Origin: Escherichia coli
Lineage (GTDB): Bacteria; Pseudomonadota; Gammaproteobacteria; Enterobacterales; Enterobacteriaceae
NCBI RefSeq assembly: GCF_048403405.1
Contig: NZ_CP183129.1
Reading direction: 5' to 3' (one strand)
Length of the DNA: 64,000 nucleotides
Made by a program: the position numbers. The stretch's first letter is position 1. Each line of letters begins with the position of its first letter. Below, piece by piece: positions 33,001 to 39,000 of the stretch.

Positions 33001-36000
33001 GGAAGCGAGCGCTGTACCGTTAACACAATTAGATCTGACGGTACACGTAGCCACTAAGCTTAACCGCTCTCATCTGCTGACCGCACGGCATAGCTATATT
33101 CTGCCGGTTCTGGGACGCAGCGAGATTGACATGCAAAAAAGCGGTGCGCAGGCGGTAACCGTTGAGGATTCAATGTCGATGATTCATGCCTCGCGTGGCG
33201 TGTTAAAACCCGCCGGTGTAATGCTGAAATCAGAGTGTGCAGTGGTCGCGGGAATCGCGCAGGCAGCACTACCCCAGAGCGTGGTAGCCTGGGAGTATCT
33301 GGTGGAAGATTATGATCGCATTCGCAATGACATTGAAGCTGTGCTGCCAGAGTTCGCCGACTATAACCAGCGCATCCGTCATCCCGGTGGTTTTCACCTG
33401 ATAAATGCAGCTGCTGAAAGGCGCTGGATGACGCCGTCAGGTAAGGCTAATTTCATTACCAGTAAAGGGCTGTTAGAAGATCCCTCTTCAGCGTTTAACA
33501 GTAAGCTAGTCATGGCGACAGTACGCAGTCACGATCAGTACAACACGACGATTTATGGTATGGATGATCGCTATCGAGGGGTATTCGGTCAACGAGATGT
33601 GGTCTTTATGAGTGCTAAACAAGCTAAAATTTGCCGTGTAAAAAACGGCGAAAGAGTTAATCTTATTGCGCTTACGCCAGACGGTAAGCGAAGCTCACGC
33701 CGCATGGATAGATTAAAAGTGGTCATTTACCCTATGGCTGACCGCTCACTGGTGACCTATTTTCCAGAATCGAATCACATGCTAACACTTGATAACCACG
33801 ATCCATTAAGTGGCATTCCTGGCTATAAAAGTATTCCGGTTGAATTAGAACCATCAAATTAATTCGCCTCCTCATTTCTTCTGCTGTCATCCGCACAGCA
33901 GAAGAATTCCTCATTGACCATTGTCGCGCAATTTACTCACATGTGCTAAATTAAACTGCTCGTTATAAGATATATACCTCCGCCTACAGCTGTAAGAAAC
34001 TCCGCTCAGTACTGAAGCGCCAGTCCTATTTCCTCTATTCTCCAGCCTGTTATATTAAGCATACTGATTAACGATGCTTAACGTCATTCGTTTAATAAAC
34101 ACATTTGAAATGCATGCGACCATAGTGAAAAATAAAATCACGCAAAGAGACAACTATAAAGGGATCATGTCTGTAATTGTGGTTGTCTTATTACTGACCC
34201 TTACATTGATAGCCATTTTTTCGGCAATTGATCAGCTGGGTATTTCAGAAATGGGTCGCATTGCAAGGGATCTTACACACTTCATTATCAATAGTTTGCA
34301 AGACTGAAAATAAACAGCAAATTATAAATATGAAATGTTAAAAAAGTATCGATAAAAACTTTATTGTTTTAAGGAGATAAAATGTCGCTCGTTTGTTCTG
34401 TTATATTTATTCATCATGCCTTCAACGCTAACATTTTAGATAAAGATTACGCCTTCTCTGACGGCGAGATCCTGATGGTAGATAACGCTGTTCGTACGCA
34501 TTTTGAACCTTATGAGCGGCATTTCAAAGAAATCGGATTTAATGAAAATACCATTAAAAAATATCTACAATGCACTAACATCCAGACAGTGACGGTGCCT
34601 GTTCCTGCGAAGTTTTTACGTGCTTCAAATGTACCGACTGGATTGCTTAATGAAATGATTGCTTATCTCAACTCGGAAGAACGCAATCATCATAATTTTT
34701 CGGAACTTTTGCTTTTTTCTTGCCTATCTATTTTTGCCGCATGCAAAGGTTTCATTACACTATTAACTAACGGTGTGCTATCCGTTTCTGGGAAAGTGAG
34801 AAATATTGTCAACATGAAGCTGGCGCACCCATGGAAGCTGAAAGATATTTGTGACTGCCTGTACATCAGTGAAAGCCTGTTGAAGAAAAAACTTAAGCAA
34901 GAGCAAACGACATTCTCACAGATTCTTTTAGATGCCAGAATGCAGCACGCAAAAAATTTGATACGAGTAGAAGGTTCAGTTAATAAAATTGCCGAACAAT
35001 GTGGTTATGCCAGTACATCTTATTTTATTTATGCGTTCCGCAAACATTTCGGCAACAGTCCGAAGAGAGTTTCTAAGGAGTACCGTTGTCAAAGGCACAC
35101 GGGAATAAATACGGGCAACACGATGAATGCTTTAGCTATTTGATTATTTGCTAACGAGTAGTCAACCACACACGCTACGTAAGAATTAAATGGGGCAGCC
35201 ATTTCCTGCCCCGCGTTGTTTTTAGGCGATATATTTATTGAAATAAATAAGTGACATTCATCACATATTTATGCATTTGCATAACCTGTTGCATGATTAT
35301 TTATGATCTCAATTCGGCATTTTATCAGTAAAATACAATAATTTATTAAATATCAATAGATTAGTTGTTTATCTGCGAGAAATTACTTAGTAGAATAGAA
35401 AGTAATGTCAACAGTTTATGGACTGTTATTTCTCTTTTTTTAGCTAAATCTGCTATCTCTTTATGTGACTAACTTCACTTACATCCACTTATTTCTCTTC
35501 GTAAAATTACTTTGGAATTAAGTACAATAAGAAGAGGAACATTTATGAAGTCTGCATTAAAGAAAAGTGTCGTAAGTACCTCGATATCTTTGATACTGGC
35601 ATCTGGTATGGCTGCATTTGCTGCTCATGCGGCAGATGATGTAAAGCTGAAAGCAACCAAAACAAACGTCGCTTTCTCAGACTTTACGCCGACTGAATAC
35701 AGTACCAAAGGAAAGCCAAATATTATCGTACTGACCATGGATGATCTTGGTTATGGACAACTTCCTTTTGATAAGGGATCTTTTGACCCAAAAACTATGG
35801 AAAATCGTGAAGTTGTCGATACCTACAAAATAGGGATAGATAAAGCCATTGAAGCTGCGCAAAAATCAACGCCGACGCTCCTTTCATTAATGGATGAAGG
35901 CGTACGTTTTACTAACGGCTATGTGGCGCACGGTGTTTCCGGCCCCTCCCGTGCCGCAATAATGACCGGTCGAGCGCCCGCCCGCTTTGGTGTCTATTCC

Positions 36001-39000
36001 AATACCGATGCTCAGGATGGTATTCCGCTAACAGAAACTTTCCTGCCTGAATTATTCCAGAATCATGGTTATTACACTGCAGCAGTAGGTAAATGGCACT
36101 TGTCAAAAATCAGTAATGTGCCGGTACCGGAAGATAAACAAACGCGTGACTATCATGACAACTTCACCACATTTTCTGCGGAAGAATGGCAACCGCAAAA
36201 CCGTGGCTTTGATTACTTTATGGGATTCCACGCTGCAGGAACGGCATATTACAACTCCCCTTCACTGTTCAAAAACCGTGAACGCGTCCCCGCAAAAGGT
36301 TATATCAGCGATCAGTTAACCGATGAGGCAATTGGCGTTGTTGATCGTGCCAAAACACTTGACCAGCCTTTTATGCTTTACCTGGCTTATAATGCTCCGC
36401 ACCTGCCAAATGATAATCCTGCACCGGAGCAATATCAGAAGCAATTTAATACCGGTAGTCAAACAGCAGATAACTACTACGCTTCCGTTTATTCTGTTGA
36501 TCAGGGTGTAAAACGCATTCTCGAACAACTGAAGAAAAACGGACAGTATGACAATACTATTATTCTCTTTACCTCCGATAATGGTGCGGTTATCGATGGT
36601 CCTCTGCCGCTGAACGGGGCGCAAAAAGGCTATAAGAGTCAGACTTATCCTGGCGGTACTCACACCCCAATGTTTATGTGGTGGAAAGGAAAACTTCAAC
36701 CCGGTAATTATGACAAGCTGATTTCCGCAATGGATTTCTACCCGACAGCTCTTGATGCAGCCGATATCAGCATTCCAAAAGACCTTAAGCTGGATGGCGT
36801 TTCCTTGCTGCCGTGGTTGCAAGATAAGAAACAAGGCGAGCCACATAAAAATCTGACCTGGATAACCTCTTATTCTCACTGGTTTGACGAGGAAAATATT
36901 CCATTCTGGGATAATTACCACAAATTTGTCCGCCATCAGTCAGACGATTACCCGCATAACCCCAACACCGAGGACTTAAGCCAATTCTCTTATACGGTGA
37001 GAAATAACGATTATTCGCTTGTCTATACAGTAGAAAACAATCAGTTAGGTCTCTACAAACTGACGGATCTACAGCAAAAAGATAACCTTGCCGCCGCCAA
37101 TCCGCAGGTCGTTAAAGAGATGCAAGGCGTGGTAAGAGAGTTTATCGACAGCAGCCAGCCACCGCTTAGCGAAGTAAATCAGGAGAAGTTTAACAATATC
37201 AAGAAAGCACTAAGCGAAGCGAAATAACTAAACCTTCATGCGGCGGAATTTTCCGCCGCCTTATTGAGCGAGATAGCGATGCACGTTACAGCCAAGCCCT
37301 CCAGTTTTCAATGTAATCTCAAATGTGATTACTGTTTTTACCTTGAAAAAGAGTCGCAGTTTACTCATGAAAAATGGATGGATGACAGCACTCTGAAAGA
37401 GTTCATCAAACAATATATCGCAGCGTCTGGCAATCAGGTCTATTTTACCTGGCAAGGCGGTGACCCCACTCTGGCTGGCCTGGATTTTTTCCGTAAAGTT
37501 ATTCACTATCAACAACGCTATGCAGGCCAAAAACGTATTTTTAATGCATTACAAACGAATGGCATTTTATTGAGTAATGAATGGTGTGCCTTTCTCAAAG
37601 AACATGAGTTTCTGGTTGGTATCTCGATCGATGGATCCCAGGAGCTACATGACCGTTACAGACGCAGTAATTCTGGTAACGGTACTTTTGCAAAAGTGAT
37701 AGCAGCCATCGAGCGTCTGAAATCATATCAAGTAGAGTTTAATACGTTAACCGTCATTAATAACGTCAATGTCCATTACCCTCTTGAGGTTTATCATTTT
37801 TTAAAATCTATCGGCAGTAAACATATGCAATTTATCGAATTGCTAGAAACCGGGACGCCGAATATTGATTTCAGTGGTCATAGTGAGAACACATTCCGTA
37901 TCATTGATTTTTCTGTGCCTCCTACGGCTTATGGCAAGTTTATGTCGACCATTTTTATGCAATGGGTTAAAAACGATGTGGGTGAAATTTTCATCCGTCA
38001 GTTTGAAAGCTTTGTCAGCCGTTTTTTGGGGAATGGGCATACCAGTTGTATTTTCCAGGAGTCCTGCAAGGATAATCTGGTTGTTGAAAGTAATGGAGAC
38101 ATTTACGAATGCGACCATTTTGTCTATCCACAGTACAAAATTGGAAACATTAATAAATCTGAACTTAAAACGATGAACAGTGTACAACTGACAGCGCAAA
38201 AAAAACGGATTTCAGCGAAATGTCAGCAATGTGCATATAAACCTATCTGCAATGGCGGTTGCCCTAAGCATCGTATTACTAAAGTAAACAATGAGACTGT
38301 TTCCTATTTTTGCGAAGGTTATAAAATCCTTTTTTCAACCATGGTACCTTATATGAACGCCATGGTGGAGTTAGCCAAGAACAGAGTACCGCTTTACCAC
38401 ATTATGGATGTTGCAAAACAAATGGAGAATAATTAATAACGCTCCTTCTTTGCTCCAGTCTTAGCCTCCGTCTTATGACCTTAACAAAGCACCCGACATA
38501 AATTCCTGTTGGGTGTTTCGTCATAATCATCTTCCCTTGCGAAAATTCTGGCTTACGTGGCATGCGTCAGGGCATTAGCAATACCCTTGATTATCAATAG
38601 CATAACCGTAACCATTGAAAATAAATAATTTCTTTATATTTCAAAATGTTAAATGACACTTAAATAAATTTCATCAGTAAATCATTGCCATAGATAATCA
38701 TTGGATGGCACAATCAATTTTCGCTAATGATAACCATTCCCATTACGTTTCGTATGTTGATAGCAAAGTATCTCTGTCTGCTGAAGCCCTTTTGGCTGCG
38801 TAAGAATAATAAAACTTCAGTGCTGTTAATCATTATTATCCTCGCCATGATCCTTGGCGTGGTTAAAATTCAGGTCTGGTTAAACGACTGGAATAATGAT
38901 TTTTTCAATGCGCTAAGCCAGAAAGAAACCAATAAGCTTTGGCAGCTTGTCCTTTGGTTCCCTGCCCTGCTGGGGATCTTTGTATTAATATCCGTAAACA

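Follow-up and report, generated by a model that had tools for sequence, protein, structure and literature searches.

The ydeN-ydeM gene pair of Escherichia coli: a predicted serine-type sulfatase with its putative maturase

The adjacent genes ydeN and ydeM of Escherichia coli very probably form a two-gene operon that encodes a sulfatase of the formylglycine-dependent S1 family together with an enzyme dedicated to its activation, as judged from sequence. Observed directly were the structure of the genes, their motifs, the profile scores that place both proteins in their families, the retention of the two genes as a pair and the purifying selection on them. The pair as such is already known: all annotations of E. 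coli name it, computational surveys of sulfatases in bacteria have recognized it from the earliest ones onward, and it carries little weight as a discovery. The predicted sulfatase is retained by 99% of E. coli genomes and, at 69-84% identity, by distant gut bacteria. Sulfatases govern access to host mucin and glycosaminoglycans, and a defined substrate of YdeN would be informative about E. coli nutrition in the gut. Leads toward it are the galactose-4-sulfatases among the nearest relatives, regulation by carbon source, the strictly serine-type motif and the mobility of the two genes as a unit.

Table 1. Coordinates of features at the ydeN-ydeM locus
Feature	Coordinates	Strand	Description
ydeO intrinsic terminator	35191..35223	+	8-bp GC stem and T-run (terminator scan, sequence)
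Distal CRP-consensus-like site	35250..35265	+	AGTGACATTCATCACA; 1 mismatch
Proximal CRP-consensus-like site	35464..35479	+	TGTGACTAACTTCACT; 1 mismatch
Sigma-70 promoter-like site upstream of ydeN	35478..35507	+	CTTACA-18-TAAAAT; consensus match only
ydeN Shine-Dalgarno	35532..35538	+	AAGAGGA, 6 nt before ATG (sequence)
ydeN	35545..37227	+	560 aa; ATG 35545 to TAA 37227; predicted periplasmic serine-type S1 (formylglycine-dependent) sulfatase
YdeN signal peptide	35545..35631	+	Sec-type, MKSALKK...AAHA/ADD (sequence)
YdeN formylglycine target motif	35938..35973	+	S132-G-P-S-R136-A-A-I-M-T-G-R143; oxidation predicted at Ser132
Intercistronic GC hairpin	37240..37259	+	GCGGCGGA-AUUU-UCCGCCGC, then CUUAUUG; terminator-like, weak U-tract
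ydeM	37279..38436	+	385 aa; ATG 37279; radical-SAM/SPASM homologue of anaerobic sulfatase-maturating enzymes
YdeM radical-SAM cluster motif	37312..37335	+	C12-N-L-K-C16-D-Y-C19 (CX3CX2C); invariant in 71 homologues
YdeM SAM-binding "GGE" motif	37456..37467	+	here G60-G61-D62-P; rare allele
YdeM SPASM region	38047..38313	+	eight Cys for two auxiliary [4Fe-4S] clusters, plus D279

Gene structure and upstream signals

The original prediction had ydeM follow ydeN directly, and its gene boundaries agree with ours: the genes are on the same strand, 51 nt apart, and RefSeq gives both of them the same annotation, with these gene names, in K-12 and in the 100%-identical strain 4621. An in-frame TTG at 37264 was rejected as the ydeM start: 71 homologues align from an MH(I/V)TAKP start, and its position at the foot of the intercistronic hairpin also disfavors it. 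The ydeO terminator separates the upstream gene ydeO from the ydeN transcription unit. The sole two matches to the CRP consensus with no more than one mismatch in the 64-kb window (the whole 64,000-nucleotide stretch of contig NZ_CP183129.1 analyzed here) both fall into the 400-bp ydeO-ydeN spacer; the proximal one abuts the -35 hexamer of the promoter-like site, and a class II position would fit. This promoter-like stretch is identical in K-12. An equivalent of the intercistronic hairpin is found between the sulfatase and maturase genes in eight of nine orthologous loci, across genera; the terminator scan made no call at the ydeN-ydeM hairpin.

YdeN is a predicted serine-type sulfatase

That YdeN is a secreted, sulfatase-like protein, as had been proposed, agrees with a match to the Pfam Sulfatase model (PF00884; E 1.3e-70, residues 58-408) and with its Sec-type signal peptide, in which no twin-arginine motif was found. 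Family matches of both YdeN and YdeM to Pfam and TIGR models are at the profile level and far beyond chance. The AF2 model of YdeN (pLDDT 91, falling below 50 for residues 1-46) matches sulfatase structures. Vesicles from a fraction rich in periplasm contained YdeN alongside periplasmic proteins (PMC7973035), and the protein was also detected in an anaerobic O157 proteome (PMC3936929).

The proposal had hinged on a formylglycine target motif. It is present as SGPSR...TGR and is invariant in 17 YdeN orthologues (69-84% identity). Position 132 is Ser or Cys across 52 relatives, and 31 of the 35 more distant ones are of the cysteine type; YdeN itself is, by its motif, a predicted serine-type sulfatase. 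Residues D66, D67, R136, H185, H286, D345 and K364 are invariant in the 52 relatives, K183 and N346 are retained in 51 of them, and YdeN has the full set of aligned metal-binding and catalytic residues. The metal-binding Asp/Asp/Asp/Asn and catalytic Lys/His/His/Lys roles are assigned by homology.

YdeM is a homologue of anaerobic sulfatase maturases

YdeM scores 498.3 bits against the TIGR03942 "anaerobic sulfatase maturase" model (cut-off 349.45), covering 362 of 363 profile positions, and contains the Pfam domains Radical_SAM and SPASM. It aligns end-to-end (residues 4-359, E 2.5e-61 with 4K36) with the solved Clostridium perfringens maturase anSMEcpe (PDB 4K36-4K39), sharing the CX3CX2C motif, eight auxiliary-cluster cysteines, a C-D catalytic pair and a Tyr after the radical-SAM motif. 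The SPASM cysteines are C257/C263/C278, C315-x2-C-x5-C-x3-C328 (with C318 and C324) and C345. Residues C257, C263, C278 and C328 align with anSMEcpe C255, C261, C276 and C330, and C315, C318, C324 and C345 with C317, C320, C326 and C348; the grouping into two auxiliary clusters is the one reported by Goldman et al. 2013. D279, the proposed catalytic base, corresponds to anSMEcpe D277. Across 71 homologues the 3+8 cysteines show no variation, and neither do Y21 and D279. A curated threshold passed and every cluster-binding cysteine kept support the assignment of YdeM as a sulfatase maturase homologue, and both cysteine features of the original prediction, CxxxCxxC and C-terminal clusters of the anaerobic maturase type, are borne out.

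YdeM differs from anSMEcpe in its partner, since the natural partner of the latter is a cysteine-type sulfatase while that of YdeM would be of the serine type, in scoring under the Clostridium-type equivalog cut-off (251 bits vs 441), and in having GGD, in this strain, in place of the GGE motif. It is not an equivalog of NF010308 either (355 bits vs a cut-off of 484), which we take to be the AslB-type model. AslA/AslB and YidJ/YidF are further putative sulfatase and maturase pairs encoded in the same genome outside the window, and AslB and YdeM have been treated together as two putative maturases (PMC8379841).

Could YdeM instead mature a peptide (RiPP), as other SPASM-domain enzymes do, or be some different radical-SAM enzyme whose place beside ydeN is incidental? 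SPASM enzymes are functionally diverse, the maturase role of YdeM is putative, and YdeM also matches RiPP maturase models, among them DynA (213 bits), DarW and YhhB. These matches are, however, far under the curated cut-offs (e.g. 213 vs 450), whereas that of TIGR03942 is passed; no precursor-peptide open reading frame accompanies ydeM, the partner kept in all nine foreign loci is a serine-type sulfatase, and the proposed catalytic base and Y21 are invariant. We regard such an identity as most improbable. Both YdeN and YdeM are termed "putative" (PMC8379841, PMC10878103), and the searchable literature holds no biochemical demonstration of YdeN as a sulfatase or of YdeM making formylglycine.

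The pair is conserved and mobile

Of 5,426 complete E. coli genomes, about 5,380 (99%) carry both genes. With dN/dS values against K-12 of 0.016 for ydeN and 0.08 for ydeM, both genes are under strong purifying selection. In all nine orthologous loci outside Escherichia (Yersinia, Aeromonas, Iodobacter, Salmonella, Leminorella, Proteus, Dryocola, Citrobacter and one metagenome contig) the maturase gene lies directly 3' of the sulfatase gene, at a distance of 45-222 nt, and no other neighbor is common to them. The metagenome contig is unclassified, with one cluster member labeled Candidatus Anaerobiospirillum. The pair is also carried on Proteus and Providencia plasmids, and some foreign copies reside on plasmids or integrative elements. 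Because the genes stay adjacent with different flanks and some copies are on such elements, the pair is a self-contained, mobile unit, which strengthens the original prediction of an independent enzyme/maturase unit. A porin was considered as a conserved third member, being upstream in Aeromonas and at a second E. coli copy, and was rejected: the porins are 32% identical and absent elsewhere.

The YdeM sequence of this strain departs from the family at one motif position. Residue 62 is Glu in K-12 and in 70 of 70 other homologues and Asp here; among the 5,426 E. coli genomes, only 5 carry E62D and 7 carry P120S. D62 might weaken SAM binding. Lysine 2,3-aminomutase has GGD at the corresponding motif. 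A frameshifted YdeM (A9 run) occurs in many assemblies and was rejected as a real common allele, its exact form being found in no complete genome; it is possibly an assembly error.

These variants bear on another reading, in which the pair would be a relic of horizontal transfer that does little or nothing in E. coli, its maturase impaired here by the GGE to GGD change. The low G+C content of the locus (39-45%), the mobility of the cassette elsewhere, the rarity of the E62D allele, the frameshifted forms and the lack of a reported phenotype, with azo-dye reduction unaffected by ydeN deletion (PMC10653809), could all be read in its favor. Against it stand the dN/dS values and near-universal presence of the pair, detection of the YdeN protein, regulated transcription of ydeN/ydeM (PMC4918353, PMC10878103), the conservative nature of a Glu to Asp change and the absence of the tested frameshift allele from complete genomes, and we give it hardly any credence.

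Regulation and the acid-fitness setting

CRP SELEX targets include ydeN (PMC3105977), and AraC binds at ydeN only with arabinose (PMC3738151). In mice, a triple mutant that lacks araC has ydeM among its upregulated genes, and the same study cites earlier work for high expression of ydeMN in an araC deletion strain (PMC10878103). A scan for the AraC half-site consensus upstream of ydeN, allowing 3 mismatches, was uninformative (427 matches vs 438 expected), and AraC binding at ydeN is therefore taken from the literature only.

The original prediction had placed the pair within the acid-fitness region. By position this is correct, as ydeP, safA, ydeO and gadB adjoin it in the window; by regulation it is not, as GadX is a repressor of ydeN (PMC4918353) and ydeN is down about 40-fold at pH 4.4 (PMC10746267). 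Co-regulation with the adjoining acid-resistance genes was rejected, published expression running the opposite way. The label is positional only; in other genera the pair is found in unrelated contexts.

A proposed activation mechanism

From these features we infer that YdeM matures YdeN, that it does so ahead of export, what the hairpin does and what kind of substrate YdeN acts on. YdeN would be synthesized as a precursor with a Sec signal peptide, and YdeM would bind its S132-G-P-S-R...TGR segment while the protein is still unfolded in the cytoplasm. The [4Fe-4S] cluster of the CX3CX2C motif would reductively cleave S-adenosylmethionine, a C-beta hydrogen would be taken from Ser132, the electron would leave via the two auxiliary [4Fe-4S] clusters that the SPASM cysteines coordinate, and the product would be C-alpha-formylglycine. 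Once activated, the precursor would cross into the periplasm, and there the formylglycine in its hydrated form would, with a bound divalent metal, hydrolyze a sulfate ester. A serine-type YdeN is predicted not to be activatable by the oxygen-dependent formylglycine-generating enzyme (FGE) or by the E. coli cysteine-type sulfatase system, which would account for the maturase gene traveling with ydeN. Carbon-source signals (CRP, and AraC when arabinose is present) govern expression of the pair, the acid-response regulator GadX turns it off, and the terminator-like hairpin probably holds the maturase below sulfatase levels.

The arrangement resembles Klebsiella pneumoniae AtsA/AtsB, in which a periplasmic serine-type SxPxR sulfatase is encoded in the same operon as a three-cluster radical-SAM enzyme, the activation of AtsA by cytoplasmic AtsB having been established in earlier work (Szameit 1999; Fang 2004; Grove 2008). 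Gene order is reversed, as atsB precedes atsA in Klebsiella. The Klebsiella sulfatase is an arylsulfatase regulated by sulfur and tyramine, whereas ydeN is under CRP, AraC and GadX control and the nearest relatives of YdeN are carbohydrate sulfatases. Deletions of aslB and ydeM were reportedly without effect on maturation of a heterologous cysteine-type sulfatase (Benjdia et al. 2007, FEBS Lett), and the Klebsiella serine-type enzyme in E. coli generally needs co-expressed AtsB; together, this could mean that YdeM is poorly expressed or substrate-specific. Serine-type sulfatases have also been reported active in E. coli without added maturase (PMC8379841), and maturase dependence may therefore not be absolute.

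Candidate substrates

The S1_19 carrageenan galactose-4-sulfatases (ZgCgsA 9HH2/3, Ps iota-CgsB 6B0J, PsS1_19B 6PSM), followed by S1_16, are the top matches of YdeN in sequence searches (E 3e-52 to 1e-42) and, in the same order, in Foldseek (E about 1e-35; TM about 0.8 by target length for S1_19), with a shared catalytic core; identity to S1_19 enzymes in the structural alignments is only 25-28%. Unlike YdeN, the S1_19 comparators are cysteine-type, marine and located within polysaccharide-utilization loci, and they are without its 36-residue insert (72-108) and C-terminal extension of about 60 residues. The insert and the low identity argue against assuming S1_19 membership.

YdeN might alternatively be a formylglycine-dependent hydrolase of other esters, such as a phosphonate monoester hydrolase/phosphodiesterase or a sulfur-scavenging broad arylsulfatase. 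PGAP names it only a "sulfatase-like hydrolase/transferase", it weakly matches PehA and type I phosphodiesterase models, members of its superfamily are promiscuous, and Yersinia ydeN rises along with cys genes upon iscR deletion (PMC4055776). Scores against the PehA and arylsulfatase equivalog models are nevertheless far under cut-off, the nearest neighbors by sequence and structure are all carbohydrate sulfatases (S1_19, S1_16, GALNS-like), and the signals acting on ydeN are those of carbon source (CRP, AraC; PMC3738151, PMC3105977), none suggesting sulfur control. We consider these other activities unlikely. As a class, the most likely substrates of YdeN would be sulfated sugars or oligosaccharides of small size that derive from glycans of the host or the diet. 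The closest characterized relatives remove 4-O-sulfate from galactose-type sugars.

A more specific and quite speculative proposal, which we hold to be doubtful as a whole, is that of a horizontally mobile serine-type cassette in which a structurally conserved, terminator-like hairpin sets the ratio of enzyme to maturase and the sulfatase removes 4-O-sulfate from sugars of the galactose or GalNAc type, freed from glycans of host or diet (e.g. chondroitin-4-sulfate, mucin or carrageenan). If true, it would let enterobacteria that do not degrade glycans themselves cross-feed under anaerobic, catabolite-derepressed conditions. The hosts of such a cassette of gut-associated Proteobacteria are Escherichia, Yersinia, Salmonella, Citrobacter, Proteus, Aeromonas and an unclassified metagenome contig.

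Sulfatase and maturase signatures

The gene names and coordinates of the original prediction agree with the ORF list and with the RefSeq annotation of strains 4621 and K-12. This gene pair was annotated long ago and is already known: the products are labeled “sulfatase-like hydrolase/transferase” and “anaerobic sulfatase maturase” in strain 4621, “putative sulfatase YdeN” and “putative anaerobic sulfatase maturation enzyme YdeM” in K-12, and both are termed putative in the literature searched (PMC8379841, PMC10878103). YdeN matches the Pfam Sulfatase model with an E-value of 1.3e-70, and the formylglycine target motif, proposed as the test of the sulfatase claim, is present in its serine form (S132-G-P-S-R136-A-A-I-M-T-G-R). 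Residues D66, D67, R136, H185, H286, D345 and K364 are unchanged in 52 aligned relatives, K183 and N346 are conserved in 51 of the 52, and position 132 is Ser or Cys in all of them. Judged by homology, the conserved positions would be those that bind the metal and carry out catalysis in S1 sulfatases. The N-terminus (MKSALKK...AAHA, followed by ADD) looks like a Sec signal peptide lacking a twin-arginine motif, and the AlphaFold2 model (mean pLDDT 91) is confident outside residues 1-46. The protein was found by proteomics in O157:H7 grown anaerobically (PMC3936929) and, together with periplasmic proteins, in vesicles from a tolA mutant (PMC7973035).

Against the NCBIfam model TIGR03942 “anaerobic sulfatase maturase” (cut-off 349), YdeM reaches 498 bits; it falls far under the cut-offs of all peptide-maturase models. 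The solved Clostridium perfringens maturase anSMEcpe (4K36) aligns with it end to end (E 2.5e-61). The predicted CxxxCxxC motif and C-terminal cysteine clusters were all found: C12-x3-C16-x2-C19, C257, C263, C278, C315-x2-C318-x5-C324-x3-C328 and C345 correspond one-to-one to the Clostridium enzyme's ligands for the radical-SAM and auxiliary clusters and, together with Y21 and D279, are invariant in 71 homologues (47-99% identity). Homologue alignment backs the ATG start of ydeM and does not support TTG 37264 as an alternative.

Compared with K-12, YdeM carries four substitutions here (E62D, N99S, P120S and P312S). In the GGE SAM-binding motif, the Glu is residue 62; of 5,426 complete E. coli genomes, 5 have Asp here and 5,337 the common allele, and Asp is absent from the 70 homologues compared. 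The change is conservative. P120S, which replaces the Pro of the conserved DGP motif, was found in 7 genomes. Separately, a frameshifted YdeM of 320 residues, which fits a run of nine rather than eight adenines in codons 307-310, accounts for 751 member sequences in database clusters, and a second form of 298 residues is shifted near residue 224. Since the exact A9 allele is absent from all complete genomes searched, the frameshifted forms may reflect misassembled homopolymers instead of genuine pseudogenes.

AtsB/AtsA and the Clostridium enzyme are the established models for sulfatase maturation. By analogy, YdeM would oxidize Ser132 of the unfolded YdeN precursor to formylglycine in the cytoplasm, using a SAM-derived radical and three [4Fe-4S] clusters ahead of Sec export, and the exported mature YdeN would then hydrolyze a sulfate ester in the periplasm. 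Serine-type targets are not known to be substrates of oxygen-dependent FGE-type systems, which would account for the close linkage of the two genes.

A two-gene unit shared across genera

YdeN orthologues are unusually highly conserved (69-84% identity) in Yersinia, Salmonella, Citrobacter, Leminorella, Dryocola, Proteus, Aeromonas, Shewanella, Iodobacter and, by the label of one cluster member, Candidatus Anaerobiospirillum. All 17 orthologues examined are serine-type; among 35 relatives at greater distance (27-45% identity), 31 belong to the cysteine type. The view of the pair as a self-contained enzyme/maturase unit is well supported: at nine orthologous loci in other genera, a YdeM homologue (52-67% identity) lies 45-222 nt downstream of the sulfatase, and these two are the sole genes that the loci have in common. 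In Salmonella the pair adjoins an integrase and TraI, in Proteus it is on a Rep3/MobA contig and in Aeromonas it is flanked by IS elements; it is also found on conjugative plasmids of Proteus and Providencia. The dN/dS values between the window and K-12 are 0.016 (ydeN) and 0.08 (ydeM). The pair thus looks like a mobile cassette that is kept under purifying selection.

A further serine-type sulfatase resembling YdeN (77% identity, 565 residues) is present in some E. coli, with a porin gene directly ahead, an IS110 transposase downstream and no maturase gene nearby; it would rely on a maturase encoded elsewhere.

The 51-nt spacer between ydeN and ydeM contains a hairpin with an 8-bp GC stem and a weak U-tract, which is more stable than shuffled sequence (z -3.0). 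A simple terminator scan called no terminator at this position. Comparable GC-rich, terminator-like hairpins of unrelated sequence lie between sulfatase stop and maturase start at eight of the nine loci from other genera (z -1.7 to -4.9), several with better U-tracts, and at least one compensatory pair change distinguishes the Aeromonas stem from that of Iodobacter. We infer that the hairpin is possibly a leaky terminator or a stabilizer that sets sulfatase above maturase level.

Positions of the features discussed (window coordinates unless a locus is named; L003, L004 and L008-L013 are orthologous loci from other genera, L006 and L007 are E. coli contigs)
Feature	Position	Strand	Remark
Usher gene (ydeQRST)	~27400-30050		L001 1-1817
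ydeO terminator	35191-35223		clear
CRP-like site, distal	35250-35265		
CRP-like site, proximal	35464-35479		
ydeN	35545-37227	+	ATG; 560 codons
Spacer hairpin	37240-37259		
ydeM	37279-38436	+	ATG; 385 codons
ydeM codon 62	37462-37464		E62D
ydeM codon 120	37636-37638		P120S
A8 run in ydeM	38198-38205		codons 307-310
yneP	38402-38524	-	40 codons
Foreign hairpin, L003	9680-9706		
Foreign hairpin, L004	9696-9719		
Foreign hairpin, L008	9696-9720		
Foreign hairpin, L009	9696-9719		
Foreign hairpin, L010	7691-7714		
Foreign hairpin, L011	1854-1877		
Foreign hairpin, L012	7700-7719		
Foreign hairpin, L013	7698-7722		
Region of second ydeN-like copy, L006	2615-5544		
Region of second ydeN-like copy, L007	1497-4426		

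A lead to the substrate

In sequence searches against solved structures, the top matches to YdeN were carrageenan galactose-4-sulfatases of SulfAtlas subfamily S1_19 (E 3e-52 to 1e-42), followed by an S1_16 enzyme; the GlcNAc-6-sulfatase BT4656, the comparator cited in PMC10878103, reached only 3e-30. Foldseek searches with the AlphaFold2 model gave the same ranking (ZgCgsA, PsS1_19B, Ps iota-CgsB, then S1_16). S1_19 comprises 4S-carrageenan sulfatases (PMC5066984), pointing to 4-O-sulfated galactose-type sugars. We regard this as a lead and not an assignment, because identity in the Foldseek structural alignments is only 25-28% and a 36-residue insert (72-108) of YdeN is missing from these enzymes.

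Genomic setting and regulation

The 3.2 kb around the pair match strains 4621 and MS 69-1 at 100% identity and most other E. coli at 95-99%, and are present in 5,380 of the 5,426 complete genomes. Genes follow one another in the order ydeP, safA, ydeO, ydeN, ydeM, yddA, yddB, pqqL, gad. G+C content is 39-45% in ydeN and ydeM and 34-45% across the ydeO-ydeN-ydeM-yddA block (33500-40000), below the approximately 51% of the whole E. coli genome, which fits horizontal acquisition.

A clear terminator closes ydeO, so that ydeN has a control region to itself. The only two matches to the CRP consensus with at most one mismatch in the whole 64 kb both fall in the 400-bp spacer upstream of ydeN, and the proximal one abuts the -35 hexamer of a promoter-like site. 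CRP SELEX targets include ydeN (PMC3105977), AraC binds upstream of it only with arabinose (PMC3738151), and in mice on one diet, an araC-deleted triple mutant showed raised expression of a set of genes that included ydeM (PMC10878103, which also cites earlier work for high ydeMN expression in an araC deletion strain). These published data agree with carbon-source control of the pair. The original prediction placed it within the acid-fitness region; the position is real, with ydeP, safA, ydeO and gadB as neighbors, but functionally the pair runs counter to the acid response, ydeN being repressed by GadX (PMC4918353) and falling at pH 4.4 (log2 -5.3; PMC10746267), and it sits elsewhere in other genera.

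Two further features were seen nearby. The minus-strand ORF that overlaps the final 35 nt of ydeM antisense is yneP in the K-12 annotation and a “hypothetical protein” in strain 4621. The fimbrial usher gene, upstream of fimF/fimG/ydeQ, is full length here; it measures 2,652 nt in strain 4621, compared with the truncated ydeT of 1,149 nt in K-12.
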